Shown here: positions 2,633-47,954 of the stretch, in pieces
Position numbering within the stretch: the stretch's first letter is position 1
How the letters are laid out: the number at the start of each line of letters is the position of its first letter
Virus record (IMG/VR): IMGVR_UViG_3300038673_000220
Span: 85,135 to 149,134 of that record
Reading direction: 5' to 3' (one strand)
DNA from: a virus
Lineage: Duplodnaviria; Caudoviricetes
DNA length: 64,000 bases
Notes under the pieces: generated by a model
Told to the model about the DNA's origin: nothing
Seen by the model: the letters and a program-made list of their open reading frames with translations, nothing else
Databases searched by the model: none
Made by a program: the position numbers and the translations under genes

Positions 2633-3214
2633 ATGGACGATAACGGCAATATTAATAAAGCGATTCGGTTTTCAACGGATGATTTCAAATACACCGCTGA
2701 TTTGAGTCTGTATGGAGGTCGAGCAAGTTTTTCTATTTTTGATAATGGGTCAAAAAGTGCTCCAGTAATTAAAATGCTCTTCAATCAGACATCTGGTGCG
2801 CAGATCGTTTTCATCATGAATAAAGTATTGAATGAAAAAGATCTCAGATCACCTATCGAGCAATCCCATTATCCATACAACCGTGATACTAAAGAAAGCT
2901 CATTCAAGAGTTCTTTAGCTATCGGTAGAGATAATGAAGGAGTCATTTTCTTCGATTTCACAAGCGATACGCACAAAGATCCTATTCGGTTTTATCCGAT
3001 AACTGATAAGAGTGTCCGTATCAACGGTATGGAGCTTCCAAAAGTTACATTAACTGAGATGAGCGTTCGAGCAATCATCAATGTTTTTAACGTGTTACTT
3101 AAAGCCAGCTTGTATACAAAAGATCTTCCATTTTCACCGAACGATGGGGGTGGTTCCACTGGAGGTGGTTTCGTAGATCCGAAATCGTCTGTTGGTGACG
3201 ACGTCCCGTTTTAA
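2633..3214 (+). CDS. Putative ssDNA-binding-like protein (phiKZ gp67 position)
   Basis: Gly-rich linker and acidic C-terminal tip GDDVPF resembling SSB DDIPF; TAAGGAG upstream. Confidence 0.5.
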   Translation: MDDNGNINKAIRFSTDDFKYTADLSLYGGRASFSIFDNGSKSAPVIKMLFNQTSGAQIVFIMNKVLNEKDLRSPIEQSHYPYNRDTKESSFKSSLAIGRDNEGVIFFDFTSDTHKDPIRFYPITDKSVRINGMELPKVTLTEMSVRAIINVFNVLLKASLYTKDLPFSPNDGGGSTGGGFVDPKSSVGDDVPF

Positions 3215-3280: not shown

Positions 3281-3314
3281 TCGAGTACTACCGCATAAGG
3301 TAGTACTCGATTTT
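3281..3314 (+). terminator. Intrinsic terminator
   Basis: 12-bp perfect stem TCGAGTACTACC/GGTAGTACTCGA followed by TTTT. Confidence 0.75.
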
Positions 3315-3317
3315 CAT

Positions 3318-3329
3318 ATATATATCATA
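3318..3329 (+). promoter_or_regulatory. Putative early (virion-RNAP) promoter ATATATATCATA
   Basis: Same motif at 6080, 11329 and 25617, each upstream of an early-type gene; resembles phiKZ early TATATTAC. Confidence 0.6.
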
Positions 3330-3371
3330 ATAAAGAAGCTTGTATAATTAATATAAAAAGAGGAGTTGATA

Positions 3372-4982
3372 ATGTCTGTTTCGTACGATTTTCTTAAAAG
3401 ATATATAGACCCAGATACTGGACAGGTTAATTTCATTGAGATCGATTATGACCCTGAAAAGATTCGAATTGAAAAGCGTTTGTTCAACATCAGGACTTAT
3501 GATGTTTTAAGGAAGAACAAATGGGGTAATGTTGATCCAGTTAATCGATTCATCCGTGAGACATTGGATGAATCTGAATATGACCAACTTGTCCAGCTCT
3601 TCGTTAAATGTAAAAGAGAATTGGTTGGAGCTGAAACTGGAGAGAGTATTGTCGACGCAGTTGTTAAGATCGACAATTATATCTATAAAACCTTTAAGAA
3701 ATTAGGTATTTCTGCAAGGGTTTTCGATTTCGTTTGTCGGGATCAGTCTATATCTCTTCCTGATTTTACTAACATAGGTACACGAGATCAGGATACTCCA
3801 GAGAAAACTTTCTATGAGGATGATTACCATCTGATCAATACGATCGTTATCATAGCAAAGATGCTTTGTCCTCTATTTGGTGACATCATCAACCGAATCA
3901 AATTAGCAAATGATTCGTATAAAAGTATGAAAGAGATCGTAGCATTTGGTATCATTAATAATATCCTTCGTGAAGATTTTGAAGTTATTACGAAGAAGCT
4001 CATGAATTATATCGGAAAGATGATCGATAGATTCTTATCTGATGATCCGATGATAACTTTCAATGGTATCACGGCAACAAGCCTGACGAATTACATGTTC
4101 GCTAAGATCATCGTTAAGAATTTTACGAATCTTAATTTGTATGAGCCTGATGGAAACGTTATTCGATCAGTTTGTGTGACATTAAAGCGGTCTATTGAAA
4201 ATGAAACAAAAGGTGCTACAAAGCTCATGTATCGTGAGCGTTTTGTACCTGAGACAAGCGATGATGATCAGAATACATCGCTTATGGAAAACTCTATCAA
4301 TACGGTGAATGAACCAGTAGAAACACCCGTAATAGTTCATGAGGCGATTGAGTATTTCATTAGTGATTTTCTTGAAAAGAATTCTGTTGATAAAGAGTTC
4401 TTTGAAGAACTTGTTCGGTATTATAAAGTAACGATCCTTCAACCAACACCTGTGAATGAGTTGATCGTTGCTTTGTTTGTGGCTGATCCAATAGGTTCTG
4501 CGTATTGTGTAAAATACATGGATATGGATATGATGATTCGTATCATTGTCATCATCCAGATCTACGCAATGAATATGGGGTTCAAATCGATCATCCCTAT
4601 CTTGTCACTGATACCAACGAATACTACAAAAACGGAAATAAACGATGCTGATAATCGCATCATTCTGAATAACGGTCGTGGTAATAATCCGAATATGATT
4701 AATTACTTCATTCATTTGAATGAGTGTGTTGGTCATATTAAGGATTGGAACGGTTTCAATTTTACTGAATATATGAAGATAATCATGATGTATGTCATTG
4801 AGAATATTCATATATACAACGTTGCTCCAGGTTTACTAAATATATCTGATACTGGAACAACATACAAAGGAGACGACGACACACTCAAATACGATGAAAA
4901 CATCATAGCCGAATTACATAGCTTTATGTACCATCTTCTTAAATTATCCAACGAGGATCGGAGCTTTGTTAATCAATATTAG
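3372..4982 (+). CDS. Non-virion RNAP promoter-specificity (sigma-like) subunit, phiKZ gp68-like
   Basis: About 536 aa; TFYEDDY..L..IAKMLCPLFG motif; synteny with the nvRNAP block; AGGAG before ATG 3372. Confidence 0.6.
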   Translation: MSVSYDFLKRYIDPDTGQVNFIEIDYDPEKIRIEKRLFNIRTYDVLRKNKWGNVDPVNRFIRETLDESEYDQLVQLFVKCKRELVGAETGESIVDAVVKIDNYIYKTFKKLGISARVFDFVCRDQSISLPDFTNIGTRDQDTPEKTFYEDDYHLINTIVIIAKMLCPLFGDIINRIKLANDSYKSMKEIVAFGIINNILREDFEVITKKLMNYIGKMIDRFLSDDPMITFNGITATSLTNYMFAKIIVKNFTNLNLYEPDGNVIRSVCVTLKRSIENETKGATKLMYRERFVPETSDDDQNTSLMENSINTVNEPVETPVIVHEAIEYFISDFLEKNSVDKEFFEELVRYYKVTILQPTPVNELIVALFVADPIGSAYCVKYMDMDMMIRIIVIIQIYAMNMGFKSIIPILSLIPTNTTKTEINDADNRIILNNGRGNNPNMINYFIHLNECVGHIKDWNGFNFTEYMKIIMMYVIENIHIYNVAPGLLNISDTGTTYKGDDDTLKYDENIIAELHSFMYHLLKLSNEDRSFVNQY

Positions 4983-6072
4983 CTCAGGATTAACGATAAG
5001 AGAAGCTGCTTCCATGGGAGAGGTTGATATACCTATCAGCCTTTCCATAGAAGCTGTAAATACTAAATCAATCATTCGGAATGGTAGGTATAAAAAAGAT
5101 CAAAGTACAAGATTCGATTTCATTAAAGAAAACGGTTCTATGGTATTAAATGGAATCTATTTCTATATTGAAATGATCTCTGTTGGAGTAGGTGTAAACC
5201 ATTATCTTATCATTTTAAGACTGTGGGGTAAATCAACAACGTGTAAAGAATTTCTTGTAACTAAGAACATCGAAATATTCAGAAAATCCATACTGAATAT
5301 GAATATTTTATCATCAACGATAATAGCAAAAATATGTACAACGATCGGTGATGAGAATATGGATGATGATCTTGATATGGCTGATTATCAGGCTTTAGGA
5401 TTCGTTACTGAAAAACTTCCCATTATACCGAATCTAACGCAAAAGGAATACAACCAACTCAATTACCTATCTCTATTAACTCAACCAAGATGTACTGATG
5501 TCACAAAGATCCTTCTTAACACACTCTATTTTGAAGGATTAACTTCTGTAGATTTGATCAATTTAACAACTGGTATTGAACAACCGAACTTCATAAAGAG
5601 ATGTTATCAGTACCAGCATCAAGCTGATTTTGATATCGATGCGAGTAATATCTTTATGAGGATCATTGATATCGGTGTTTTGGATAGTATGATCATCTTA
5701 AAGAGGATACCTTATGATTCTTTTAATATCAACATCAATCTCAGAGAATATGATATAACGATCAACACTGTCAACACGTCAGCTGGACCGCTTTTTCCAT
5801 TTGATTTCAATATGATCTATAACGAAATCGTAGGCATTCTTAATGAATTCGTTATGACTTTCTTGTATTGTGAATCGTGTGCGAACGTATTAACGAATCA
5901 GGAGTCAGTTGTATATATTGACGATGATACCAAAATCGTCATCGACTCATTAAATATTATTAGAACCAATGATGAAATAGTAACAATAACTTTCTATTCA
6001 GGAGATTATATTTATTCGAGAAGCTACGATCTGATCATGTTGGCTATGCTGTCCCCTGTCTTAGGGGAATAA
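4966..6072 (+). CDS. Hypothetical protein
   Basis: 368-aa ORF, TTG start with GGAG, overlaps the upstream stop. Confidence 0.6.
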   Translation: MLINISSGLTIREAASMGEVDIPISLSIEAVNTKSIIRNGRYKKDQSTRFDFIKENGSMVLNGIYFYIEMISVGVGVNHYLIILRLWGKSTTCKEFLVTKNIEIFRKSILNMNILSSTIIAKICTTIGDENMDDDLDMADYQALGFVTEKLPIIPNLTQKEYNQLNYLSLLTQPRCTDVTKILLNTLYFEGLTSVDLINLTTGIEQPNFIKRCYQYQHQADFDIDASNIFMRIIDIGVLDSMIILKRIPYDSFNININLREYDITINTVNTSAGPLFPFDFNMIYNEIVGILNEFVMTFLYCESCANVLTNQESVVYIDDDTKIVIDSLNIIRTNDEIVTITFYSGDYIYSRSYDLIMLAMLSPVLGE

Positions 6073-6079
6073 TCTTTAA

Positions 6080-6091
6080 ATATATATCATA
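6080..6091 (+). promoter_or_regulatory. Putative early promoter ATATATATCATA
   Basis: Identical to 3318-3329. Confidence 0.6.
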
Positions 6092-6128
6092 TACTGAAAC
6101 CTAAAGATCTTTTTAATTGGAGGAGATC

Positions 6129-7667
6129 ATGTTACAAAATATCTATGATGAGCAAGATAATAATCAAACTGCAAGTAATAATATCATTCAAAGTATTAGT
6201 GGTAATTTCAATGTTGGAAACAGTGTATTGATTCTGCTTTCTCCACGAAATGTTTGTGATCATTATAAACGTCCTTACGTATACAATTTCGATAACAACC
6301 TTATTGAAAATGTAGCAGAGAATATCGTTTCACATCCATCGATGCAACATAGTGTTAAAAATATCATCAATGGCGTTCCTTCTATCAATCACGCTATTTT
6401 ACCATCTTCGTATGGATTCAATATAGCGACTTCCGCTTATTCACACAGTTGGGGATTCGTTTTCATCATCGATGATAACATGGGTCCAGGTGTTATCAAC
6501 AACAACATATCGAATCGCCGTATCTTTATCGGTGTGTGTGGTCAAGAGCCTATATCGCAAATGGGATTAGCTTCAGCTACCCCAGAAAAGTATCTGAACC
6601 CTAATTGTCAATTGATCATAACCAAACAGATGCTTATCAGGAAATACGCAACGTTTGGTTCACGAGATTACCGTAATGCTACAAGAACTACAATCAACGA
6701 TAACCTCGTTCATTATGATCAAACGCTTTGGGGTGATGGTAATGGTGACTCGACATTTTACACATTGAATCCTGGATCTATTCATAATCAAGTTAATTTT
6801 GAAGAAGATCAAATGTCAGCTATACATGATCTTGGATCGAGTATAAATGTCATGGGTTCATCTAAGATAAAGAGTTCGTTGGAATCACCAAAGAAGCAGA
6901 TGCAAGATATCTTAAATGCGATCCAATCTGGATCTCAGAATCTTTCATTCCTTTCAACTCAAGGTGATTTTGCAGAAGAAGCTATAACTCCAATAGGTCA
7001 TGGATTGGATGACACATCGACGATGTTTCAGTCATATGTTCATAGCGCCTTTAATGAGAAGAACATCAATGATAATTCCATCAACGATGCGAATATGATT
7101 GATCCTAGAGCATTCGTTAACATATCTATGTTGATGAGTAATTATTCTCCACGTGTTTTTCCAATTAACATTCCACAGAATGACAAATTCGACATCATTC
7201 CTCAGCATTACAAGAGTTTAAATAACATCTTCTCTTCGTTGGTTTGTTCTGTGGTACCTGCATATATGAGTAGTAGCAATATATCAGAAATAGCTTTTAT
7301 GTATAATTCGTATCATGATGCTATTTCAGTTAATCATATTGCATCACCGACTACCGCCGATAATGAAACGCTTAAGCTTGCATGGCAAACTTTCGAATAC
7401 CTTATCAGGAATGATCTTTTTCCGATATTGAGGCATAATGGTGGTGAATTTGATCTTCAAGTACTTTCAGTATTGAATGCAAATACTGATGTTATTTTGA
7501 ATTTCCTGGATAATGAAATACTACCAGTTGGATCCATTTATCGTGAGAATACCCAACTTGGCGGTATAACCTCATCGTTGATCGGTAATACGAACAATGT
7601 TGATACAAACTCTGTTCGGTTGAATGATCTTATCAGGCAAGTAAGTGGAAATGCCAAAATCTATTAA
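6129..7667 (+). CDS. Probable PicA/Imp1-like phage-nucleus import factor (phiKZ gp69 position)
   Basis: About 512 aa; YKRPY and SWGFVFII motifs as recalled for the family; lies between gp68-like and gp70-like genes; GGAGGAG SD. Confidence 0.45.
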   Translation: MLQNIYDEQDNNQTASNNIIQSISGNFNVGNSVLILLSPRNVCDHYKRPYVYNFDNNLIENVAENIVSHPSMQHSVKNIINGVPSINHAILPSSYGFNIATSAYSHSWGFVFIIDDNMGPGVINNNISNRRIFIGVCGQEPISQMGLASATPEKYLNPNCQLIITKQMLIRKYATFGSRDYRNATRTTINDNLVHYDQTLWGDGNGDSTFYTLNPGSIHNQVNFEEDQMSAIHDLGSSINVMGSSKIKSSLESPKKQMQDILNAIQSGSQNLSFLSTQGDFAEEAITPIGHGLDDTSTMFQSYVHSAFNEKNINDNSINDANMIDPRAFVNISMLMSNYSPRVFPINIPQNDKFDIIPQHYKSLNNIFSSLVCSVVPAYMSSSNISEIAFMYNSYHDAISVNHIASPTTADNETLKLAWQTFEYLIRNDLFPILRHNGGEFDLQVLSVLNANTDVILNFLDNEILPVGSIYRENTQLGGITSSLIGNTNNVDTNSVRLNDLIRQVSGNAKIY

Positions 7668-7681
7668 AAAGGTGAAAAATC

Positions 7682-8764
7682 ATGAGTGAGATAAAGGTAG
7701 AACAATTTGTTCGATTTCTTGTTGGTCTTGGTGGAGTATATGATGTTGATGAGAATGGTTATATCATCAATAAAGATCGAGACGAAGATAAACCGGTTCT
7801 TCTGAAGGTTGATAATCGTTATCGAAATATCATGGTGATGAAGGATGTCATTAAAGATCCTGAAGTCGTTGTTATCAATCCTCTGAATGAAAATATAACT
7901 GAGTCGAACGATGCTCGATGGTTATATATGGGGTTGACAGCTGGATTGGGTCATCGTATACTCCACATCATCAATCATCTGCATTTTATCATCTCTTCTG
8001 AGAAATCTGATGAAGAGCTATCGTTCTCAACTGAAGAACTGAAATTTGCAGCTCGTCATAAAGACTTCAATAAGAAGACTTTGGATGCGATCAACATCAT
8101 CAGTAAGAAGCTTGAAACATTCACATATGTCTGGTATAATCGTAAACAGAAGGAAGCTCACTTGGGAAGCTCTGTTTATGATCCAGATACAATAGCTGAA
8201 TTTCCACAATTCACACCGAAAGTTTGGAAGACTATCGGAAAACTCTTCGGTGAACTTTTCAATGTGAATGAGGATCTTGAGAAAGGTAAAGAAGAGCTTT
8301 ATGAAAAATATACAGTTCGATCCGACCTTATCAATGTTCCAAAACTTGAATCCATTTTGAATGTTTATTATAAGGTTTATTCTCACCTCAATAAATATCT
8401 CGAAATGTGTAATATCGATGATGCTGACTTTGTTATCGACTTGACTGAATTCGGTCATCACATCGAACATCTCCAAGATTATTACAATAAGGCCAAATGG
8501 TTTACTGGACCGATCGGTTCAACTAAGACCGAAACTCCCCAAACGAGTATACCAACATCTGTTCCTCAGAGGAATGCTCCATTGAGAGGACATGAAGAAT
8601 CATCTATTCCAGATAATCCGTTTAGACGGAATATGGATTTTGATAGATTCAGTAATCAGCCAAGTAGATTCGGTAATCAACCTCAGTTCGGTGGTCAGCA
8701 ACAATTCGGTGGTCAACCACAATTCAGCGGTCAACCACAATTCGGTGGAAACGTTTACTATTAA
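7682..8764 (+). CDS. Conserved protein (phiKZ gp70 position) with C-terminal QxFG(G) low-complexity tail
   Basis: NPLNENI motif, 360 aa, synteny; tail FGNQPQFGGQQQFGGQPQFSGQPQFGG. Confidence 0.55.
   Translation: MSEIKVEQFVRFLVGLGGVYDVDENGYIINKDRDEDKPVLLKVDNRYRNIMVMKDVIKDPEVVVINPLNENITESNDARWLYMGLTAGLGHRILHIINHLHFIISSEKSDEELSFSTEELKFAARHKDFNKKTLDAINIISKKLETFTYVWYNRKQKEAHLGSSVYDPDTIAEFPQFTPKVWKTIGKLFGELFNVNEDLEKGKEELYEKYTVRSDLINVPKLESILNVYYKVYSHLNKYLEMCNIDDADFVIDLTEFGHHIEHLQDYYNKAKWFTGPIGSTKTETPQTSIPTSVPQRNAPLRGHEESSIPDNPFRRNMDFDRFSNQPSRFGNQPQFGGQQQFGGQPQFSGQPQFGGNVYY
8648..8749 (+). repeat. Coding tandem repeat of ~18-nt units encoding Q-x-Q-F-G-G
   Basis: TTC units at 8648, 8669, 8687, 8705, 8723 and 8741. 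Confidence 0.85.
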
Positions 8765-8771
8765 TTAAAAG

Positions 8772-8816
8772 ATACGCCGAAAGAGCTTTTACACTCTTTC
8801 GGCGTATTTATTTTTT
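8772..8816 (+). terminator. Intrinsic terminator
   Basis: 14-bp stem ATACGCCGAAAGAG/CTCTTTCGGCGTAT followed by a T-tract. Confidence 0.8.
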
Positions 8817-8826
8817 AGGAGCAATC

Positions 8827-9627
8827 ATGGCTAATTTTGATTTATTTGTTGGAATATCTGTTGAGAATAAACAACTTGAATCACGACAATTACGCGTATT
8901 CCTTCGAGAATTATTACCTCATGCTGGAGGTGATTTAAAAGACAATGCTCAAGAAGAAACGTATAACGTGAAGGACGATCAAGGTAACCAAGTATCTGGG
9001 AGTGTTAAGACCTCAAATCATGTTGTCGCTGATTATTTTGGTTTAGAAACAAACAGAGCTTTTCCACCTGATATCGTTAAAGGAGAACAAGTTCTTGTCT
9101 TCAAATACGAAGGTGAGGATAAATACTACTGGGTATCATTTGGTCGAGATGACAATCTCAGAAGAGGTGAGCTTCTACGATGGCAAGCTTCGGATGATAT
9201 GTCAGAGATCAAAGATTTAAACGAATCGAATACATACTTTATGGAACTCGATACGAAGGTTGCGAAACGAGCTCGTATTCACACCTCTAAATCTGATGGT
9301 GAAGCTTTTGTTTATGATATCACTATCGATTCAAAGAATAACACTTTAGTCATTACTGATGACATCAATAATACAATAGTTATCAAGTCTGATGAAGAAC
9401 GTGTAACTATCAACAATTCACGAGGAAGTGTTGTTAACCTAAACAAATCTGATATAGAGATATTTGCTCCAAGGAATATTCTGATAAGAGCTGGGAATAC
9501 CCTAACGCTGTGGAATCCATGTTGTATTGGGAGTGGTGGGTTTGCTGGTGGTGAGGGGCATATGACACGAGTAGGAGCTACTCGAGGTATGTCTGGTGAT
9601 ATAGCTTTCGGTGAACGAGGTAAATGA
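8827..9627 (+). CDS. Baseplate central spike-like protein (OB fold plus beta-helix)
   Basis: PPDIVKGEQV..YYW motif followed by short beta-strand repeats, typical of gp5/gpV-like spikes. Confidence 0.6.
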   Translation: MANFDLFVGISVENKQLESRQLRVFLRELLPHAGGDLKDNAQEETYNVKDDQGNQVSGSVKTSNHVVADYFGLETNRAFPPDIVKGEQVLVFKYEGEDKYYWVSFGRDDNLRRGELLRWQASDDMSEIKDLNESNTYFMELDTKVAKRARIHTSKSDGEAFVYDITIDSKNNTLVITDDINNTIVIKSDEERVTINNSRGSVVNLNKSDIEIFAPRNILIRAGNTLTLWNPCCIGSGGFAGGEGHMTRVGATRGMSGDIAFGERGK

Positions 9628-9628
9628 A

Positions 9629-10525
9629 ATGTCTGAAGGATTTCCTGATGTACCTGAATTAGTTGGACAATGTCCAGCTCGTCGTAAATGTTTTTTAGAT
9701 TTCACTTACTATCTCGAATGTGATGATTGGTGTGAACGACATAATCTTCTAAGAACTGAGAGAAAGTATGGTGAACCTTATCAATATTCCATCAGGATGG
9801 GGATAGGAGCTGGTAATGCTATCCGTATTTATGATGATGATGAAAATAGGATCGATCTCGAAAGTGAAGAGAAACGGATCGCTACCTCAAATAGTTTAGG
9901 TACCCTATTCGAAGTCATCGGTTCAGATATCAACAGTAAAGCTCCCAATGATATTACAGAACTAGCTTTTCATGAGATAAACTATAGCGCACCTGATATC
10001 AAGACCACTGCTAATAGGACATTGTTGGTAGGTATCACACCATGTGAAAATGAAGATGATCAAGCTGATCTTCTTTGTACTGATATAACTAAATATGAAG
10101 TTATTCACGATCCAAATACCCAATGTCGCATTTACATGGATGGTGATCGGATCACTTTAACATCAACAGCTATTCGTCTCAAAGATGAGTACGTTCAAAA
10201 TAGCTATGAACCTATTTGCGGTGGTGGAAGTTATGTTGAAGACGATGAAGAAACATCATTTATCAACATCCGTAAAGAATACATCGAAATCAATGCAAAA
10301 TGTACTATTGCATTAAATGCTGGTCAAGTTATGATCAACGGTACTCCATCGGATCCAGCTGCAACCAATGCGGCATTATCAGCTAATGCCGATGCTGCAT
10401 CGGCAGCTGCTGGTGCTGCTGCATCGGCGGGAGCTATGGCTGCTTCTAATGCGACTGAGATAGCTGCGCTTAAAGATACCATAGCTGCACTAGAAGCACG
10501 AATAACTGCACTTGAGGAAGTCTAA
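9629..10525 (+). CDS. Spike beta-helix paralog, Cys-rich, with Ala-rich and coiled-coil C-terminus
   Basis: IYDDDENRIDLESEEKRIATSNSLG..SDINSKAPNDI aligns with ITDDINNTIVIKSDEERVTINNSRG..SDIEIFAPRNI of the upstream gene; GAGGT SD before ATG 9629. Confidence 0.5.
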   Translation: MSEGFPDVPELVGQCPARRKCFLDFTYYLECDDWCERHNLLRTERKYGEPYQYSIRMGIGAGNAIRIYDDDENRIDLESEEKRIATSNSLGTLFEVIGSDINSKAPNDITELAFHEINYSAPDIKTTANRTLLVGITPCENEDDQADLLCTDITKYEVIHDPNTQCRIYMDGDRITLTSTAIRLKDEYVQNSYEPICGGGSYVEDDEETSFINIRKEYIEINAKCTIALNAGQVMINGTPSDPAATNAALSANADAASAAAGAAASAGAMAASNATEIAALKDTIAALEARITALEEV

Positions 10526-10986
10526 TGTTTTTCAATAAAAAACAAAAGGATTTAGATATCGAACTATCGGCTAAAGAATTTCTTGAGCTTAATAATAGAC
10601 TTGATGACATGATCAGAGAATGGATCACCGTCGAATCAATTGGAGGTTTACAAAAGAATTCAAAGCTTGCTGAATTGTTCATATTCAATATGAAACTCAT
10701 CTATAGTTCTGATGTATATAACAAAGAACTCAGAGATTTCATGAATTCTAAGGTTGATGGTTCTGGAGATACTGATCTTCTGTTTAGTCGTATCCAAGAT
10801 CTCTATGTAAATATCTGTTTATGCTTTCCGAGTTACTTCATTCAATCTATTCGCGAAAAGCATTTTGATATTTTAAAAGATCTTGGATACGATCCAGATC
10901 AGGATATCTATGATCAAACACCATACGCTTGGTTAATGGTACGTATCCAAGATATCATGCGATTTAGAAATGTCACGTCAAAGTAG
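10525..10986 (+). CDS. Hypothetical protein
   Basis: 153-aa ORF, TAATG coupling to the upstream gene. Confidence 0.6.
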   Translation: MFFNKKQKDLDIELSAKEFLELNNRLDDMIREWITVESIGGLQKNSKLAELFIFNMKLIYSSDVYNKELRDFMNSKVDGSGDTDLLFSRIQDLYVNICLCFPSYFIQSIREKHFDILKDLGYDPDQDIYDQTPYAWLMVRIQDIMRFRNVTSK

Positions 10987-11305
10987 TTGACGTTCTATAA
11001 AGACGATAAAGACTGAATATCGTACTTTGATCAGGGATAAGGATACTCGATTTGATAGTAAAATCATCATACGAGTTAAGATAGTTTATCATTTTAGCTA
11101 TCCATACGATATTTATATCACAATTGTTATCTCTGAGAAAGTGGTCAAATTTGTAGAGATATCGATCACGATCAGCATCGGATACAACTACTTCAAATGC
11201 ACTACTTTTAATCATTTCAACATGGTCATTAACGAATATGACCCAATCTTTATCAGTGTTGTTGAGCTTTGTTATTTTCGTTGTAATATCCTTTTGAATG
11301 GACAT
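10973..11305 (-). CDS. Small virion/baseplate protein (possibly gp53/LysM-like)
   Basis: GAGG SD; W-I-x-x-x-N..DF..I.IP pattern. Confidence 0.4.
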   Translation of the reverse strand: MSIQKDITTKITKLNNTDKDWVIFVNDHVEMIKSSAFEVVVSDADRDRYLYKFDHFLRDNNCDINIVWIAKMINYLNSYDDFTIKSSILIPDQSTIFSLYRLYRTSTTLT

Positions 11306-11340: not shown

Positions 11341-11399
11341 TCAATAGGTAGTCACTATTGTCTCTATATTAATGTTACATGATTGAGGAGAATGAAATA

Positions 11400-13466
11400 A
11401 TGTCAATCACATCGAACATGAGAATACCTGCTGAATATATTGGACTAACAGGTTTACTTTGTCCTGGAATCGCAGTTTGTTCATCATCTCGACAAGAGTT
11501 GTTTGCTAAGAATATTGGTCAACCACGTGTTCCTGATGCCGGTGGTGATTTTCCAGACATGTTTGCCGGATTTGAAACAATCTTCGGCGACTACTGTTTC
11601 AATAGTGCTCGTCGTGAAAACAAGATCAAAGTTATTCAAGTTATTGATAAATACCCTTCATCGATAGCTAATATTAAACCTGGAAATAACCCATTAAAAA
11701 CTGTGATATTTCGAGATCTTGTGACTGGCGAAATCAATTATTTTGATATTAGAAAATACAGCAGCTATTCAAACGATTTTGGTTATCGTAATGTCATGAA
11801 AACGAATATCCAAGCGGATGACGTTATCCCACCTGATATGGAAATTTATTCTTCTCCTATCAAGAAAGGTGACGAATATTGTTTGGGTGTTAATGCTAAT
11901 GTATGTTTTGCTACTTTTCTAGAAACGACTGAAGATTGTTTTATGATATCTGAAAGCCTAGCTAAGAAAGTAGCCCCTCTCTCTATTGAGGATCGGTCGA
12001 TATCTTCAAGTATGAGAAAATACCCTCTGAATCTCTATGGTACTGATGACCAATTCAAGATCGTTCCTGACCTTGGCGAATTCGTTCGAGATGATGGCGT
12101 ATTGTGTGCATTTCGTCCAGTTCGTCGATTCAGTTCTATGTCAGATCTACAACCTCATAAACTCAAAGAGATCAATCACATCTTTGATAAAAAGATCTAC
12201 GCACATCCTGGAGCACAGGTTGTTGACATCGAGGTGTATATCGATAATAAGAACGATCTCCCTCAGAATGTGTACGATCAAGTAAAGGTTTACTACGAAG
12301 CTCGTATCTCGTATTGGAAACAAGTTGTTGAAGTTTATGAGAAAGTGAAGCATCTTCCTATAAGCTTCAAATTCAATACTTTAGTTACAAAAGCTATGGG
12401 ACGGTTGTTAGCTGCTAAACAACCTGTTCCAAGTATGGGAAAACGACAAAAGGTTACTTTAGTTGAGAATTTCAACCCGGTTGTTTTTCGAATCGATATC
12501 ACCCTTATGCACAAAGTTGTTATAAACAATGGACATAAGTTTGCTGGTAGAGATGGTGCTAAAGGTGTCGTTCGCGTTAAACCAGATAATGAGATGCCTA
12601 TAGATCAACAAGGATTTCGAGCTGACATCTGTATCGATCCAGTATCAGTACTTAAACGAACAAACATCATTCAGCTTTATGAGCAATACATCAACAGATT
12701 GCTAAAATGGCAAGCTATGAATCTCGATAAACTTGGCTCTATCGAGAATCAGTTTAACAGGATCATCGAAGTCCTAAACGATATCAATCCTGAATACGCT
12801 AAAGTCGTTATTCAGAGCTGTAATAATCCTGATAAGATAACCAGATACGTTGAGGATTGTAAAGCTGATACGATCAAAATATGCATACCTCCAGGTATGG
12901 ATAATCTAACTAAGGACATGATCCTCAAATTGGAGGAGAAATATCAGACACCGATAAGTCCAGTTGATTTCGTTATCGATACTCCAAATGGTAAGAAAAC
13001 AATCAGGACTAAAGAACCAATATGCATAGGAGCAAAATACGTTTATCTGTTAGCAAAGTACCCGAAACCATTAGCTCCAGGTTTTGGTTTTGTGAATAAA
13101 TGTCATATGCCTGTAGGATCGAGTGATAAGCATTCTACCCCTATTGGAACAAAACCAATACGATTCGGAGAAAGCGAATCTCGTATCTTTGCAGCTACTC
13201 TCGATATCAAATCAGTACTCAGATGGAAATGTTTATATAGTGGATCAAGACTTGGACCAAAATGCACGATCAGTGCGTTGATGAATACTGATAAACCTTC
13301 TCAATTAAAGAGGATACCAATAACAACTGAAGAACTTTACAACGATTGTCCATCTATTCGAATAGCACATCATATGTTTGAAACGTGTGGTGTCGATTTG
13401 CAAAACAGTTTGATTTCTGTAGAGGATGGTGAGAGCGTCTTTGAACAATTCAAAGGTCTGTTATAA
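11400..13466 (+). CDS. rpoB: Non-virion RNA polymerase beta subunit, C-terminal part (phiKZ gp71/73-like)
   Basis: EDCFMISES, GHKFAGRDGAKGV, ADICIDP and RFGESE motifs; GAGGAG before ATG 11400 (ORF open from 11379). Confidence 0.88.
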   Translation: MSITSNMRIPAEYIGLTGLLCPGIAVCSSSRQELFAKNIGQPRVPDAGGDFPDMFAGFETIFGDYCFNSARRENKIKVIQVIDKYPSSIANIKPGNNPLKTVIFRDLVTGEINYFDIRKYSSYSNDFGYRNVMKTNIQADDVIPPDMEIYSSPIKKGDEYCLGVNANVCFATFLETTEDCFMISESLAKKVAPLSIEDRSISSSMRKYPLNLYGTDDQFKIVPDLGEFVRDDGVLCAFRPVRRFSSMSDLQPHKLKEINHIFDKKIYAHPGAQVVDIEVYIDNKNDLPQNVYDQVKVYYEARISYWKQVVEVYEKVKHLPISFKFNTLVTKAMGRLLAAKQPVPSMGKRQKVTLVENFNPVVFRIDITLMHKVVINNGHKFAGRDGAKGVVRVKPDNEMPIDQQGFRADICIDPVSVLKRTNIIQLYEQYINRLLKWQAMNLDKLGSIENQFNRIIEVLNDINPEYAKVVIQSCNNPDKITRYVEDCKADTIKICIPPGMDNLTKDMILKLEEKYQTPISPVDFVIDTPNGKKTIRTKEPICIGAKYVYLLAKYPKPLAPGFGFVNKCHMPVGSSDKHSTPIGTKPIRFGESESRIFAATLDIKSVLRWKCLYSGSRLGPKCTISALMNTDKPSQLKRIPITTEELYNDCPSIRIAHHMFETCGVDLQNSLISVEDGESVFEQFKGLL

Positions 13467-13509
13467 AAGGTGGGGTTAAAAGCCCCATCTTCTTAAAAAG
13501 GAGAAATGT

Positions 13510-15447
13510 GTGGACACTCTAGATCTTAAAAATGTTGATATGATTGCTGTGATCGACGACCTGATCTATTATAAAGGTAAGATCCTTGTCATATTCGACA
13601 ACGGTGAAAAAGTAGAACTTCCTGTTCGTAAGCTGATATTCCATCTGATGTTTTGGGCTATCGGGAGGAAATGGAATATCACAATAACTCCAGCATTTAT
13701 AGTTGATACAAGTTTTATTTATGATTCAACGATAAGTGAAATCGGGTCAAGGCTTTTTGATGCTATTCAAGCTGTTACAGAAGGATCTTGTTATAATTTT
13801 GTTTATGACATGAATGACGCTGTCAATTATTTGAATAAATTCATTACTATCAATTGTCAGGAATATCATCAAACGATGACTATTGTCGATTTAGCCAGGA
13901 TTGCTTATATACCTGGTATAAAAGCAATAACCGACGATAGAGTTTGCGATATCAAAGTTTCTATTCAACAAGCGAATGAGTATATCAAAAAGAATTTCAG
14001 TTTACTATTTGATGAGCTTAAGAAACCCTATCCTGGAAATAAACTCCACAACTTCGTTAATCTAAGATTCGTTAAAGCAACTGCATTGGCGCATATCTTT
14101 TATCAAATCGGATTTCGTACAGACATTGATGATAATACAATCAGGTATCCAATCCAAGGAAATTATTTGGATGGATTAAGAAACACTGTTGAGTATTGTC
14201 TTGAATCTCTATCGGCTAAGAAAGCTATGTTTTATAATAGAGATTCTTTACCAACGGCTGAATATTTTGCTCGAAAGCAGCATATCTTATCAAGTTGTAT
14301 ACAACACCTGTATAAAGGAGATTGTGGATCAACAGTTACTCTTCCGTTTTACATCACTGAAAATCTTGCAAACGTTGTTCTTTATAAGAACATCGTTGAA
14401 GGAAAGAATATCATCACTCTAACTCCAAATAATATCAAACATTATATTGGTAAGATCGTCCAATGTAGAACACCAATCGGATGTAAATACACTGATGGTG
14501 TTTGTGAAGCTTGTGCTGGAAAACTCATATCAAACATCTCGCCAAATACTCACATCGGTATGTTTGCAGCCATTCGAGTTGCTTCAGTTATCACTCAGGT
14601 TATCTTAAGTTCTAAGCATGTTCAAGAAACATCTATTGTTGAGTATGCTATTCCTGAAGATCTTAAGGTATACATGATGAAGCACCAAGGTGGTATTTAT
14701 GTCAAACCAAAGATCAGAGAAAAATTCAAAAAGATCACAATGATCTTTAAGATGAATGATACTATGCAATTAAGAGAATTAGGTTCTCTTAATATAGCAC
14801 GGTTGAGTACAATCAACGAATCATCTTTCGGTAAATGTAAGGAAGTTGTTTTAATGCGTGGTAATAATCTTATCACTGAAGAAGTTGGATTAGGATCAAA
14901 TGATCAATACCCTTTATATTCTCGAGAGCTAATCAGATATATTGCAGCTCATCAGGATCTTATCACGATCAAAGATGATATGTTTATGATCTCTTTACGA
15001 GAATTCGACTTTAAAGATCCTATCTTTAAATTGGTCGTCATGAATAACTCGATGGTTAAATTCGTTAACAACGCAAAGAAGCTGGTTGAAAGTGAAATCA
15101 AAAAATACACTTCAGCAACCGAGCTTGTGAACAGTTTCTCGAATCTTGTTTATGGCCAAGTAAAGGTTAACCTAGCGTATTTAGAAATCGTTGTTCGAGC
15201 AGCGTTGATCACTGATAAAAACGATTATAGAATACCTGTGATTGAAGATATCGATGACGTTATGTTTACAACGAATCCGTCAGCGAATATGCTAAGGTCT
15301 GTTGGTATATTGTGCGCTTTTCAGCAATTACCAGCTTCGTTACGCAATCCAGCTCTTTACCTCATTCCAAGGACATTCACACCGTTTGATGAATTCCTCA
15401 ATTTAAAGCCAAGGACAGCGGGATTTCTTTCTGTCAATAAGGCATAA
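13510..15447 (+). CDS. rpoC: Non-virion RNA polymerase beta' subunit, C-terminal part (phiKZ gp74-like)
   Basis: DCGS..RTPIGC..VCEACAG zinc motif; TQVILSSKH trigger-loop-like segment. Confidence 0.85.
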   Translation: MDTLDLKNVDMIAVIDDLIYYKGKILVIFDNGEKVELPVRKLIFHLMFWAIGRKWNITITPAFIVDTSFIYDSTISEIGSRLFDAIQAVTEGSCYNFVYDMNDAVNYLNKFITINCQEYHQTMTIVDLARIAYIPGIKAITDDRVCDIKVSIQQANEYIKKNFSLLFDELKKPYPGNKLHNFVNLRFVKATALAHIFYQIGFRTDIDDNTIRYPIQGNYLDGLRNTVEYCLESLSAKKAMFYNRDSLPTAEYFARKQHILSSCIQHLYKGDCGSTVTLPFYITENLANVVLYKNIVEGKNIITLTPNNIKHYIGKIVQCRTPIGCKYTDGVCEACAGKLISNISPNTHIGMFAAIRVASVITQVILSSKHVQETSIVEYAIPEDLKVYMMKHQGGIYVKPKIREKFKKITMIFKMNDTMQLRELGSLNIARLSTINESSFGKCKEVVLMRGNNLITEEVGLGSNDQYPLYSRELIRYIAAHQDLITIKDDMFMISLREFDFKDPIFKLVVMNNSMVKFVNNAKKLVESEIKKYTSATELVNSFSNLVYGQVKVNLAYLEIVVRAALITDKNDYRIPVIEDIDDVMFTTNPSANMLRSVGILCAFQQLPASLRNPALYLIPRTFTPFDEFLNLKPRTAGFLSVNKA

Positions 15448-15499: not shown

Positions 15500-17440
15500 A
15501 TGAATTCTGTTACTATAGAGCAAGGATCAACAGCTATCTATTTATACTGTTTAGCGTCTGGTCGTCTTGCCGAAAACCCATCTGTTTCTATCTTTAGATT
15601 CCTCCAACAACATCTCACCGAATACGAATTCGATCCAAGAACAAAAACAAGTCATGCTAAGTATTTCTATTATCGATACGATAAAGAAAATGGTATCCTT
15701 TATTTACCTGTTAACATCATCCATCAACTTGAACAATACTTTAAACTCAACCTTATTGAATACAAGATCATAAAACTTCCACCAATCAATGGTAAGATAA
15801 TAGCTATTAATAAAGTTTCAAAATTTATCGATAGAGATTATCAGGTTGATTCAATCCAGTTCTTGGCACAACCAGGTATGCGAGCTCTCGAATTGCAAAC
15901 AGGTTGTATATGTGGTCAATCGAAGATTTTTTTCTCAGATGGAAATAAAACTCGAGAACTTTTGTTAGAAGAAGCGTATAACATAACAACTGAACGAAAA
16001 AGAAATAAGTACGCCGGATGGTTCAAATTCATACCATGTAAAGTTCAGTCGTTTGATGGGAGAAATATCTTTTATCATGATATCGAAGATATTGTGTATA
16101 GTGGTGTAAAATTCGTCATACGTGTTACATTTGATAATAATACCTACATCGACACAACGTTCGATCACCTACTTATGACTGAATTAGGTTGGATCGATGC
16201 TGAATTAACGTATGCTCAGATGGTTGTTGGAACAAATCCAAGAAATCCTATCATGACCTTTTACAAACAGGTTAAAGATATTCGAGCTATTGGATTACGA
16301 CCAACTTACGACATCATCTGTAAAGATCCTCACAGAAACTTCGTTGCCAATGGTACAGTTGTTCATAATTCAGGTAAGACTTACATAGCTATTCGAGCAT
16401 TAACTGAATTGAATAAGCGTGGTATCATTATAGTTCCAGCCTCGTTAATGACGCAGTGGATTGATTCTTTATCTTCGATGTGTGATGCAAAGATTGGTGT
16501 CATTCGTGGAAGTAATTCGATTTACAATATTATTAATAAAAATTTTGATGTCGATGTTGATATCTTTGTAGCCTCGATCAGTACGATCAAAGAATATGCT
16601 ATGGGATCATCTTCATTCGATGTCTTACCACCGATGCCAGTATTCATTAACGAACTTCAAATAGGGGTTAAGATCATAGATGAATGCCATCTGAATTTCA
16701 ATGCAAATACAATAACAGATATAATGTGTGGTAATATTGAACATAATATCTATTTGTCAGCAACTTATATTCGGAGTAGTCATTCGAGTAATATGATCTT
16801 TAAGAAGATCTTTCCAGATGAAATAAAATACGACGGTGGTGTTGATTATAGTCGTTATGTCAATATCACTGAAGTTGGATATTCTTTTGGTGACATCGAT
16901 GATCGACACGTCTGCTCCAAACGTGGGTATTCTCAATTCAAATATGAGAAATACTTGATGAAGAGGCCTCAGAAGATAGGAGCTTTTCTGGACAAAGTAC
17001 TGAAAAGATCTGTTGATGAGCATTATGTCACAGTAAAAGAACCAGGTGAAAAACTCTTAATCATTGTTGGTTTGAATAGCTTTGCAAATGTACTTGTTGA
17101 TTGGTTCCAATCTGAATATCCTAATTTTAATACTATTGGATATTTTTACGAAACTGACGATGAAGTGTTGAATCACGCTGATGTTATAATAAGTACAACT
17201 GGTTCATGTGGTACTGGTAAAGATATCGGTGGTCTAAGATCAATGATCCTTTTCATATCATTTAATGCTGAATCAACAACACTACAAACCATTGGACGTC
17301 TTCGTAAAATGAAGAACACTCCAGAATTTGTCTATTTAGTTAATAGAGGTATCAGATCGCATCAGCGTCATGCGTATCAACGACGTAAGATCTATAAAAC
17401 CATAGGTAAATCTTTTAACTATTTAGACTACATAGGATAA
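15500..17440 (+). CDS. SF2 DExH helicase (phiKZ gp75-like) containing an intein; 491 aa after splicing
   Basis: Walker A TG|SGKT, DECH, SAT and QTIGRLR motifs. Confidence 0.88.
   Translation: MNSVTIEQGSTAIYLYCLASGRLAENPSVSIFRFLQQHLTEYEFDPRTKTSHAKYFYYRYDKENGILYLPVNIIHQLEQYFKLNLIEYKIIKLPPINGKIIAINKVSKFIDRDYQVDSIQFLAQPGMRALELQTGCICGQSKIFFSDGNKTRELLLEEAYNITTERKRNKYAGWFKFIPCKVQSFDGRNIFYHDIEDIVYSGVKFVIRVTFDNNTYIDTTFDHLLMTELGWIDAELTYAQMVVGTNPRNPIMTFYKQVKDIRAIGLRPTYDIICKDPHRNFVANGTVVHNSGKTYIAIRALTELNKRGIIIVPASLMTQWIDSLSSMCDAKIGVIRGSNSIYNIINKNFDVDVDIFVASISTIKEYAMGSSSFDVLPPMPVFINELQIGVKIIDECHLNFNANTITDIMCGNIEHNIYLSATYIRSSHSSNMIFKKIFPDEIKYDGGVDYSRYVNITEVGYSFGDIDDRHVCSKRGYSQFKYEKYLMKRPQKIGAFLDKVLKRSVDEHYVTVKEPGEKLLIIVGLNSFANVLVDWFQSEYPNFNTIGYFYETDDEVLNHADVIISTTGSCGTGKDIGGLRSMILFISFNAESTTLQTIGRLRKMKNTPEFVYLVNRGIRSHQRHAYQRRKIYKTIGKSFNYLDYIG
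15905..16369 (+). mobile_element. Mini-intein (155 aa, no homing endonuclease) in the helicase Walker A motif
   Basis: Starts with C (CICGQS); block B TTFDH; block F TYDI; ends VVHN followed by S. Confidence 0.92.
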
Positions 17441-45786: not shown

Positions 45787-46783
45787 AATCTTCACCGTAA
45801 TAGTCGCTGAGCTTTTTGTCATACTTAGCTACTTTATCTTCATAAAACGAAATGATCTTAAGGGTCTTGGCGTATTCTGGATCATTGGGGTCAACACCAT
45901 CCAGAGATAATCGGATATTCGCAATGTGATTCTCAAGCCATTTCTTACGTTCTTTCATCATCTCATAATGCTGATGACGCCAATCGACATACGTTTCACC
46001 GATAAGAGAAAGAGCGTTAAGAGCTTTTGCTACTGTTGATAAAATCAGACCACCATTGGCCGCAGTAGAACTATCAAGATTTGATCGGAGAACATCGGCT
46101 GAAGAAAGCTTATAATCAGTCCCACGTTTCTTGATATTCATAATGATATTAACGATAGGTAATCCAACTGGTGAATTAACTACTTGATTAATGAGATCGA
46201 TACAAAGATCACCATTTTTCGTTATCTTTTGAACCATGTATTTCGGAACATCAGGACGTTTCGATTTCGTCATCACATGACTAAAGATAGCGATAAGGAA
46301 CATGCAGAAATCAACATAAATGTTCGCAATACCAATGGATCCAAGTAAGAGAGCTTGAGACATCTGGATATCACCAACAATGAATCCTTCTTTATTATTG
46401 ATGATTTCTTTTGTATTTGTTTGGAGATCAGCTACCATTGTGATGATACGATCAGTTGTTACAGAAATCGACTTGAAGAATCCAAGAGCTCGAGCTTTTC
46501 CAACAAGCTTTCTATCAATATCCAAGATAAATGATGTGCATGGTTTACCAATAGCGGTAACAATAATGCTATTCATTTTGAGTTGAGATTTCACTTCATT
46601 GTAGAGTGCAAGCTGCTGACCTTCAGATAATTGATCAAAGATATCTTTTGTGATATTCAAGGACCATTTAATATCTTCAAGTTGTTCACGGATACTATCT
46701 TCAGATATGTTTCGGTATTTGATTTCAGATGTCGGTTTTGAAAGAGTTGAAGAAATCGTACGAAGAACGTCAAATATTTTCAC
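45779..46783 (-). CDS. Inner-body/head protein (phiKZ gp90-like)
   Basis: C-terminal helical motif YEMMKERKKWLE..KIISFYEDKVAKY; synteny. Confidence 0.55.
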   Translation of the reverse strand: MKIFDVLRTISSTLSKPTSEIKYRNISEDSIREQLEDIKWSLNITKDIFDQLSEGQQLALYNEVKSQLKMNSIIVTAIGKPCTSFILDIDRKLVGKARALGFFKSISVTTDRIITMVADLQTNTKEIINNKEGFIVGDIQMSQALLLGSIGIANIYVDFCMFLIAIFSHVMTKSKRPDVPKYMVQKITKNGDLCIDLINQVVNSPVGLPIVNIIMNIKKRGTDYKLSSADVLRSNLDSSTAANGGLILSTVAKALNALSLIGETYVDWRHQHYEMMKERKKWLENHIANIRLSLDGVDPNDPEYAKTLKIISFYEDKVAKYDKKLSDYYGEDYV

Positions 46784-46811
46784 AATCGTGTCTCCTTAAT
46801 ATTGTAATGAT

Positions 46812-47954
46812 TTAGAATCTTGGCATTTGGTTCTTCGAAAGGTATTCCATGATCTCTTTCAACGAAAGCTTATCGGAAGCTGAAGAAGCTTTCATCTCAT
46901 TGTACGAATACGACGCCGATTGATCGATACCGTTAGTATAGATAGTTACACGAGAATATCTGCTATCAACCAATACTATGAACAATCCATAAATGGTATT
47001 AAAGAAACGTTGACGATCGAAGGGTCGTTCAAGGTTGATACCAGCCTTTTTGGTGACATCTTTGACAGTCTGCTCATCGGCTATCAAGATAGCATTTGCA
47101 AGATTATACGAACGTTTATTTGGATCTTGAACGATCTTCTTGAATTTAGACTTGTTCTGTTGACGAAGAATCTCAACCAGATTATTCTCTTTATCATCTT
47201 TAAGAGCTTTAGCTCTACGTTCAAGTTTGTCAATGCCGAAAACAAAATCTTTGATGAATCTGATCTCACCAGCTTGATACTGAGTGAATCGATTGATCAA
47301 TGACATATTGAAGTCACGTCCAAAAACATATTCCATAACAGATGATGGAACGATACGACTATTAATATTCACCATGATGGGAACATTGATAGTGGCACCA
47401 CTTGGACCAACAGCCATCGTGAGGTTGATATAACGACCAGAAGAGATCGGGATATTCATCTTCTTATCGACTTGATAATCATTTTTGGAAGGATCTTGCG
47501 TATAGGTTCGAGTGATATCTTCTTTAGGATTCCCGTAGTCGTCAGTCGAACGCTTGCTTTGGTACGTATAACCTTCCATACTTCCAGCTAACTGACCAAC
47601 GAGAGATTCAGTGTCAATGAAATCATTAATCGATTCAAAAGCACCTGCTGTAGAAACAGTGCTCATAATGTCTCGAACACGTTTTCCACCAACAATCATC
47701 TGATCCATTTCTAACGCGCAAATGATATAACCAACGTAAAGGTTATAAAGATTCTTAACGATATCATTAATAACAGATTCTTCTGCGATTAAACTTTGGA
47801 TAAAACATGGCGCTGCAACGATTGATTGTTTTGTAAATTTAGGAAGACTTGTTGCAGTATTTGCATTTTCAGCAAAACCTCGAACCAAATCCATAGTTTC
47901 ACTGATGGTCTGATGACCTTTAAATAACGATGCACCAACAGAAATAGGATCCAT
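46812..47954 (-). CDS. Inner-body/head protein (phiKZ gp89-like)
   Basis: SLPKFTK..P..I and AGEIRFIKDF motifs; AFE/SME sites; synteny. Confidence 0.55.
   Translation of the reverse strand: MDPISVGASLFKGHQTISETMDLVRGFAENANTATSLPKFTKQSIVAAPCFIQSLIAEESVINDIVKNLYNLYVGYIICALEMDQMIVGGKRVRDIMSTVSTAGAFESINDFIDTESLVGQLAGSMEGYTYQSKRSTDDYGNPKEDITRTYTQDPSKNDYQVDKKMNIPISSGRYINLTMAVGPSGATINVPIMVNINSRIVPSSVMEYVFGRDFNMSLINRFTQYQAGEIRFIKDFVFGIDKLERRAKALKDDKENNLVEILRQQNKSKFKKIVQDPNKRSYNLANAILIADEQTVKDVTKKAGINLERPFDRQRFFNTIYGLFIVLVDSRYSRVTIYTNGIDQSASYSYNEMKASSASDKLSLKEIMEYLSKNQMPRF

Follow-up and report, generated by a model that had tools for sequence, protein, structure and literature searches.

The central puzzle of the phage nucleus is how proteins and mRNA get through the closed lattice of chimallin; no pore has been seen, and to our knowledge no essential import factor other than PicA/Imp1 has been described for this compartment. 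The gene of the phiKZ gp70 family neighbours that for PicA in each of the nine genomes examined; the family is known but uncharacterised. Here, we describe a very divergent putative member encoded by the open reading frame (ORF) at positions 7682–8764 of a 64,000-nt stretch of viral DNA (IMG/VR record IMGVR_UViG_3300038673_000220, positions 85,135 to 149,134; hereafter the window), whose C-terminal tail carries phenylalanine–glycine (FG) repeats.

Published localisations of this family come from three phages. In PhiPA3, the family member gp64 is found at the nuclear shell along with gp2/ChmB, gp61/ChmC and gp63/PicA; it is expressed early, appears in ChmB pulldowns together with gp63 and has no predicted function, and its listed homologs are phiKZ gp70, 201phi2-1 gp126, Goslar gp173 and an SPN3US protein (Enustun et al., PMC10643120). 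phiKZ gp70 has been counted among the nuclear proteins, and its pull-down with Imp1 was negative in both directions, whereas gp67/Imp6 binds Imp1; the same study reports that Imp1 cargos are imported via distinct Imp1 interfaces, with no known import signal (10.1101/2024.03.27.586873). Finally, a construct of Goslar gp173, a protein named 'Taileboi' only in the figure legends of one preprint, was used there as a nuclear-targeting tag and goes to the nucleus (10.64898/2026.10.01.755736). Our literature search found no work discussing the tail of the gp70 family, none mentioning PHIKZ070 and none linking FG repeats to the phage nucleus.

The ORF in the window starts at an ATG preceded by AAGGTGA, and the AlphaFold2 model of its product (predicted template modelling score, pTM, 0.73) falls into two parts: the predicted local distance difference test (pLDDT) score exceeds 90 for most of residues 1–275 and lies below 50 for residues 276–360. 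These parts and the elements within and behind them are located as follows:

7682–8764, plus strand: gene for a predicted gp70/gp64-family, phage-nucleus-associated protein of 360 aa (ORF call, profile–profile and fold match)
7682–8506, plus strand: folded N-terminal domain, residues 1–275 (pLDDT mostly >90; no solved relative)
8507–8761, plus strand: predicted intrinsically disordered, low-complexity tail, residues 276–360 (85 aa; pLDDT <50)
8606–8620, plus strand: IPDNP, the local form of the short (S)NIPSNP motif of close relatives
8668–8748, plus strand: 18-nt tandem repeat, 4.5 copies, encoding QPQFGG-type units (Tandem Repeats Finder score 106, 79% matches)
8750–8761, plus strand: C-terminal tip NVYY, aromatic
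8770–8809, plus strand: predicted intrinsic terminator ending the PicA-like/gp70-like unit (16-bp stem with 7 GC pairs, then a T-run)

Behind a Pro/Ser/Thr-rich linker, the protein ends in FSNQPSRFGNQPQFGGQQQFGGQPQFSGQPQFGGNVYY, as quoted in an earlier reading of the window made from the sequence alone (hereafter the sequence-only reading), and Tandem Repeats Finder recovers the 18-nt period to which that reading had traced the FG repeats. The last 32 residues hold four FG and one FS, i.e. one Phe per six residues, with Q, P, G and N as spacers between the FG motifs, and include a single R but no D, E or K; across the whole tail, Q accounts for 14% of the residues, G and P for 13% each, and S and F for 9% each. 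Four FG motifs in an 85-aa tail were matched by 838 of 100,000 composition-preserving shuffles. Combined with the 18-nt repeat, this result points to tandem duplication of a QPQFGG-type unit as the source of the observed FG excess. Misassembly in a single sample does not account for the repeat, since a 151-nt contig from a second study, of wastewater, is identical to positions 8589–8739 with zero differences; only contigs were used there, the two runs being labelled 'RNA-Seq cDNA' and flagged as probably DNA. A 45-nt look-alike of the FG repeat (8669–8713), with five differences, was also seen on a second contig of 33 kb from the bioreactor metagenome that is the likely source of the window and may belong to a related phage or to another gene sharing the repeat.

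Conventional searches do not place the protein. PHROGs (cut-off E ≤ 0.01) and Pfam gave no match for it or for the PicA-like protein encoded immediately upstream, tblastn against 50,697 phage records returned zero matches for either, and BLASTP against phiKZ gp70 and gp69 was not significant (E 0.4 for the window protein against gp70). Metagenomic searches, however, recovered 21 homologs of the window protein and 22 of its PicA-like neighbour. When the family alignments of the two proteins (A1 for the window protein, A2 for the neighbour) were compared with those of isolates by hhalign, A1 matched the eight isolate gp70 proteins with a probability of 96.2 (E 2e-9, 224 columns) and A2 matched the eight isolate gp69 (PicA/Imp1) proteins with the same probability and E value over 442 columns, against probabilities of 0.1–0.5 in four cross-comparison controls among the gp68, gp69 and gp70 profiles, those of A2 being 0.1. 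As a single sequence, the window protein reached a probability of 84.8 (E 6.6e-6) with the gp70 profile; the corresponding match of the neighbour to the gp69 profile was weak (probability 10.7, E 0.003).

The predicted fold points in the same direction. A Foldseek search of the model against BFVD gave 12 matches (E 1e-9 to 1e-4, probability 1.00, TMq 0.41–0.57), among them proteins of PhiEaH1 (452 aa), RP12 (580 aa) and RSF1 (542 aa) that are gp70 homologs by length and position. Among solved structures there was no counterpart: Foldseek against the PDB found none at E ≤ 0.001, the best hit of a wide VIA-align search (Z 5.0) was a designed helical protein, a sequence profile search of the PDB found none below E 0.25 and a search of the ESM Atlas gave no usable match. 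No protein with an oligonucleotide/oligosaccharide-binding (OB) fold was among the Foldseek and VIA matches, although absence from such lists does not exclude the fold. A search of IMG/VR for related loci retrieved a single distant relative.

On profile and model evidence, the protein is thus assigned to the family of phiKZ gp70, PhiPA3 gp64 and Goslar gp173 (phrog_3520) as a very divergent member, and the upstream ORF at 6117–7667 is assigned by its profile as a homolog of PicA/Imp1 (phiKZ gp69, phrog_3141). The sequence-only reading had proposed both identities and suggested hidden Markov model (HMM) searches as a check; the direct PHROG search came back empty, and it was the profile–profile comparison, joined for gp70 by the fold match, that bore the proposal out. 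The FG feature itself is lineage-specific.

This last point emerges from a survey of the tail across the family. An exhaustive profile search yielded at least 417 gp70-like clusters (50% identity, E ≤ 1e-3), and the survey covered 159 metagenomic relatives with a complete N-terminal domain. Every one of them has a tail, with a length of 56–260 aa (median 120). The number of FG motifs is zero in 86 relatives, one in 49, two in 11, three in nine and four in four, and FG density is highest in the window protein (4.7 per 100 aa) and its 91%-identical relative (P0001), the two phages to which FG repeats are confined. Between these two proteins, the N-terminal domain is identical at 268 of 275 positions (97.5%) and the tail at 62 of 86 (72%). 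All eight isolate homologs carry tails as well, of 171–325 aa, of which six have no FG, that of Goslar has one and that of RP12 two. Their compositions have little in common:

phiKZ gp70: Q/M/N-rich tail
201phi2-1: P/G/N/Q-rich tail
Xoo-sp14, PhiEaH1 and RSF1 (L004:3893-5305, L007:3887-5245 and L009:3896-5524): tails with 52–60% charged residues in R/D/E repeats
SPN3US: G/L/S-rich tail
RP12: Q/A-rich tail

As an aside, the Xoo-sp14, PhiEaH1 and RSF1 tails recall the RD/RE low-complexity domains of eukaryotic RNA-processing proteins, a chemistry opposite to that of an FG/Q tail.

A more constant element is found at the very end of the tail. Within the last four residues, 156 of the 159 relatives have a hydrophobic residue, 105 have R or K and only seven have D or E. 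At positions −1 and −2, basic residues occur at frequencies of 0.27 and 0.26 against a background of 0.034 (~8-fold) and aromatics at 0.24 and 0.25 against 0.066 (~3.7-fold). Further upstream, I309, P310, N312 and P313 of the (S)NIPSNP motif are invariant or nearly so in the close clade represented by alignment A1, and IPxN occurs in 30 of the 159 wider relatives. The conserved features of the tail are its disorder and a minimum length of some 56 aa, to which the metagenomic relatives add low charge and an aromatic/hydrophobic and basic tip. The FG repeats, on the other hand, are a recent local duplication on a fast-evolving tail and not a family feature. FG tails on gp70 homologs at large, for which the sequence-only reading had proposed to look, were not borne out by the survey, with 86 of 159 relatives lacking FG altogether and isolate tails that are chemically unrelated.

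On balance, we consider it probable that the window encodes a gp70-family protein with a flexible tether and a docking tip, in which the FG periodicity is a by-product of duplication. The conserved folded domain (residues 1–275) would carry the core function, and the rapidly evolving disordered tail would act as a flexible tether whose tip, possibly together with scattered aromatics, makes contacts, weak or of a docking kind, at the chimallin shell or within it. The traits under selection in the tail would then be disorder, length and a sticky tip, the FG periodicity having arisen from the recent 18-nt tandem duplication. Such a tether-and-dock design would resemble a bacterial single-stranded DNA-binding protein (SSB) in architecture rather than a pore-filling FG meshwork. 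Localisation is taken here from the cited papers and the homology, fold, disorder, tail survey, synteny and chimallin (see below) from the present analysis; the tether and tip are what we infer from them.

Several observations weigh against this reading. The PHROG models for gp70 and gp69 miss the window proteins, so that homology depends on profile–profile comparison, fold and synteny. The tip motif is loose: a hydrophobic-(x)-R/K-(hydrophobic) pattern ends 31% of the members compared to 2% of shuffled tails, and the window protein's own tip, NVYY, has no basic residue. Charged residues make up no more than 35% of the tail in any of the 159 metagenomic relatives, so that a cohesive, FG-like chemistry in this clade should not be written off as chance. 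Lastly, the tether and its docking tip are read from architecture, in a family of which no member has a known function.

Any role at a nuclear shell presupposes that the phage makes one, and the sequence-only reading had named a genome lacking chimallin as speaking against it. By sequence, no chimallin was detected: phrog_4795, PF25677, phmmer and an HMM built from four chimallins found no match in the genome, in contrast to phiKZ, Goslar, RSF1 and PhiEaH1, which served as positive controls and were all found. Single-sequence hhalign of all 47 ORFs of 350–899 aa likewise failed to identify a chimallin, and family-profile hhalign reached only E 0.13. Structure prediction nevertheless revealed a compact 499-aa chimallin at G000:C1:75945-77444 (L019:5945-7444), 7.7 kb before the start of the window. 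The AlphaFold2 model of this ORF (pLDDT 80, pTM 0.79) has chimallin structures as its top nine Foldseek matches in the PDB, including 7sqt, 7squ, 8igg, 7sqq and 8fne, with E values of 1e-17 to 3e-13 and the next match at 1e-2; the matched structures are those of the Goslar, 201phi2-1 and PhiPA3 chimallins, at a TM score of about 0.6. Its 34 metagenomic homologs are 487–533 aa long, ~100 aa below the characterised chimallins, and a complete 236-kb genome (L020) contains both a member of the compact chimallin family and a distant gp70-like gene. A chimallin fold in the genome places the phage in a nucleus-forming lineage, and the model-based evidence indicates a lineage of nucleus-forming jumbo phages whose core proteins escape current models.

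At their C-termini, for example in the last 32 aa of L019:5945-7444, the compact chimallins have a conserved tail in common, AYQPG..(M/L)FG..G.....GG[FYW]x[RK][FW], in which the F of FG is invariant and which is probably the lattice-docking segment of the clade. We considered the gp70-like tail as a mimic of this segment and rejected the idea, as the tails had no scoring advantage over shuffled versions: with an HMM built from the C-terminal 34 residues of 31 compact chimallins, the mean score was −2.58 for gp70-like tails compared to −2.88 for shuffled tails, only 3.8% of the gp70-like tails exceeded the shuffled 95th percentile and the tail from the window scored −4.9. Between gp70-like tails and the chimallin C-terminus, there is a loose resemblance at the tip only.

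Co-folding of the genome's chimallin with the window protein gave an ipSAE of 0.38, the best control reaching 0.00. Of 80 solved complexes, 58 attain the ipSAE mark used, as do two of 110 mismatched pairs; at ipSAE ≤ 0.60 lie only seven of the 80 solved complexes together with both passing mismatches. Agreement between runs was at least 15% of contacts and partner pLDDT at least 68, and no interface is given. The co-fold thus lends weak support to a predicted contact between the two proteins, in a score range in which most passes are false, save for pairings already likely on prior grounds.

The surroundings of the gene are those of a phiKZ-like core block. The 149-kb record holding the window has an estimated completeness of 54%, and the RNA polymerase (RNAP) beta gene of the window is 24–30% identical to those of phiKZ-like jumbo phages. 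Gene order is collinear with phiKZ gp65–gp75 and runs from the gp67-like and gp68-like genes through an extra ORF, the PicA-like gene and the gp70-like gene to three inserted genes, a minus-strand phrog_3455 gene, the genes for beta and beta-prime of the non-virion RNAP (nvRNAP) and a helicase:

615–1721: SbcD-like gene
1730–2566: phrog_3229 gene
2633–3214, plus strand: gp67 (ChmC/Imp6)-like gene (phrog_3284, E 1.6e-8; phiKZ gp67 in the same PHROG)
3366–4982, plus strand: gp68-like nvRNAP subunit gene (phrog_3209, E 1.3e-17; phiKZ gp68 in the same PHROG)
4966–6072: extra 368-aa ORF between the gp68-like and PicA-like genes
6081–6091, plus strand: AT-rich, promoter-like motif TATATATCATA (exact second copy at 3319–3329; assigned by position)
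6117–7667, plus strand: PicA/Imp1 (phiKZ gp69) homolog (likely true start ATG 6129 behind GGAGGAG)
8827–10525, plus strand: two baseplate/spike-type genes (phrog_3216, E 1e-58 and 3e-13)
10973–11305, minus strand: small gene, phrog_3455
11379–15447, plus strand: nvRNAP beta and beta-prime, equivalents of gp71–73 and gp74 (phrog_3295, E 4e-123; phrog_3015, E 3e-88)
15500–17440: helicase gene

The eight isolates all keep the order gp69/PicA, gp70, nvRNAP beta without the inserts of the window, where the two phrog_3216 genes and a 153-aa ORF (8827–10986) split a block that is contiguous in every isolate. Likewise, the 368-aa ORF at 4966–6072 has no counterpart at that position in the eight isolates and does not resemble the profiles of gp68, gp69, gp70 or chimallin. 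Outside the window, two 397-aa ORFs (G000:C1:27475-28668 and 45989-47182) gave identical comparison outputs and probably represent one repeated element present in two identical copies.

The stop of the PicA-like ORF (7667) lies 14 nt ahead of the ATG of the gp70-like gene, and no terminator is found between them. Together with the hairpin and T-run at 8770–8809, this close spacing makes a shared transcription unit plausible. The sequence-only reading had described the two genes as apparently co-transcribed from one early promoter to this terminator, of which the terminator and the uninterrupted junction stand, while the 'early promoter' amounts to a motif whose frequency is not above chance. 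Copies of TATATATCATA lie ~40–50 nt 5′ of the likely ATGs of the gp68-like (3372) and PicA-like (6129) genes, the copy at 3319–3329 directly following a terminator hairpin (3281–3310); allowing one mismatch, however, the motif is not more frequent in the window than expected by chance. It is a candidate phage promoter element.

Four other readings of the tail deserve to be weighed against a tether with a docking tip. One of them takes the protein for an SSB-like hub inside the nucleus, with the N-terminal domain binding DNA or RNA and the linker and tip recruiting replication or transcription partners. Bacterial SSB combines an OB fold with a disordered G/Q/P-rich linker and an acidic C-terminal tip of the DDDIPF type. 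A folded domain, a G/Q/P-rich linker and a conserved C-terminal tip are found here in the same arrangement, the gene lies within the nvRNAP/helicase block, and published reports place both phiKZ gp70 and Goslar gp173 in the nucleus. However, neither an OB fold nor any other nucleic-acid-binding fold was recovered in the Foldseek and VIA searches, the family tip is aromatic and basic with D or E in only seven of 159 relatives, and PhiPA3 gp64 localises to the shell rather than the lumen (PMC10643120). Two chimallivirus papers searched for SSB contain no mention of it. An SSB-like hub is therefore unlikely to be the answer. The sequence-only reading had offered a generic SSB-type linker as its mundane alternative; the architecture of folded domain, linker and conserved tip does agree with that comparison, the chemistry of the tip does not, and no OB fold was found in the structure searches.

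Slightly less likely still is that the tail is a near-neutral, repeat-prone spacer that is merely tolerated at the C-terminus of a protein whose function lies entirely in its N-terminal domain. Such a spacer would account for the drop from 97.5% to 72% identity between domain and tail in the closest pair, for tandem repeats of the type made by replication slippage and for a tail composition that varies among isolates without limit. It sits poorly with the retention of a tail of at least 56 aa in 159 of 159 relatives and eight of eight isolates, with a C-terminal tip that is strongly non-random compared to shuffled tails and with the near-invariance of the NIPSNP-type motif in the close clade.

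It is also improbable that the protein is a nucleoporin-like or condensate-forming element, as the sequence-only reading had speculated. Many copies would be anchored at shell openings, their uncharged Q/N/P/G tails with Phe 'stickers' cohering into a selective phase through which PicA-licensed cargo or mRNA could pass more readily. The context fits this proposal: a family member is shell-associated in PhiPA3 and recovered with PicA in ChmB pulldowns (PMC10643120), and the gene adjoins a PicA-like gene with which it is probably co-transcribed. The chemistry fits in part, as the last 32 residues are low in charge with a Phe every six residues, none of the 159 metagenomic tails is more than 35% charged and aromatics make up ~6.6% of tail residues; the chimallin co-fold (0.38 against 0.00 for the control) adds weak support. 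The weak point is the specific argument from FG. FG nucleoporins have tens of FG motifs across hundreds of disordered residues, and four FG and one FS in ~32 residues are far below such valency. The inference suffers because only this phage and its 91%-identical relative carry the FG repeats, because FG is absent from 86 of the 159 relatives with four as the maximum, and because the tails of isolates are unrelated, being 52–60% charged or G/L/S-rich in phages that have been shown to form nuclei. In addition, phiKZ gp70 was not co-purified with Imp1 (10.1101/2024.03.27.586873), the phiKZ and Goslar reports describe a nuclear and not a shell-restricted localisation, and no literature was found that ties FG repeats to the phage nucleus. 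Functional inference from the FG repeats is hence speculative. A wider version, which we hold to be just as improbable, is that, in the large uncultured clade with compact (about 500-aa) chimallins, gp70-family proteins are anchored on the shell and their uniformly low-charge, Q/N/P/G-rich tails, studded with aromatics, cohere into a phase where transport takes place, as an independent analogue of FG nucleoporins, the FG expansion seen here being an adaptive increase in valency.

Least likely is that PicA/Imp1 reads the tail as a signal for importing or targeting the protein itself: the gene does adjoin a PicA-like gene, and a truncated Goslar gp173 construct is still nuclear (the legend's description of the construct being unclear; 10.64898/2026.10.01.755736), but the gp70–Imp1 pull-down was negative in both directions, cargos use distinct Imp1 interfaces with no import signal known (10.1101/2024.03.27.586873) and the tail sequence is not conserved.

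Encoded next to PicA and associated with the shell in PhiPA3, the gp70 family bears on the question of how the lattice is crossed. The long tail found throughout the family, with a chemistry that swings from FG/Q-rich to RD-rich and a conserved aromatic/basic tip, offers experimental handles in Goslar, PhiPA3 and phiKZ. Moreover, a whole metagenomic clade of nucleus-forming phages goes undetected by the current sequence models of chimallin, PicA and gp70. The FG repeats drew attention to the locus, yet they are less remarkable than the tail architecture shared across the family and this hidden clade with its compact chimallin.

Four described systems invite comparison with the protein. With FG nucleoporins of the GLFG/FxFG kind (e.g. 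Nup98/Nup100 type), it shares low-charge, Q/N/G-rich disorder with regularly spaced FG and a family placed at a selective compartment boundary; it differs in having no homology to them and few FG motifs, which are not conserved among orthologs, and in that no transport-receptor partner of the gp70 family is known. The likeness to bacterial SSB is one of how the parts would work, i.e. a folded domain, a flexible linker and a short conserved C-terminal peptide, in a protein that differs from SSB by having no detected OB fold and a tip that is aromatic/basic instead of acidic. A third is ChmC/Imp6 (phiKZ gp67, PhiPA3 gp61), a shell-associated RNA-binding protein encoded in the same gene block, expressed early and localised to the nuclear periphery, which nonetheless belongs to phrog_3284 and not phrog_3520 and binds Imp1 directly, whereas gp70 did not. 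The closest system is phrog_3520 itself, with phiKZ gp70, PhiPA3 gp64, 201phi2-1 gp126 and Goslar gp173, to which the window protein is linked by homology of the N-terminal domain, by its position between the PicA/Imp1 and nvRNAP beta genes and by a long disordered tail with a hydrophobic/basic tip; what sets it apart from the isolates is a shorter tail (85 aa compared to 171–325 aa), the densest FG repeat and the spike/baseplate inserts downstream of its gene.

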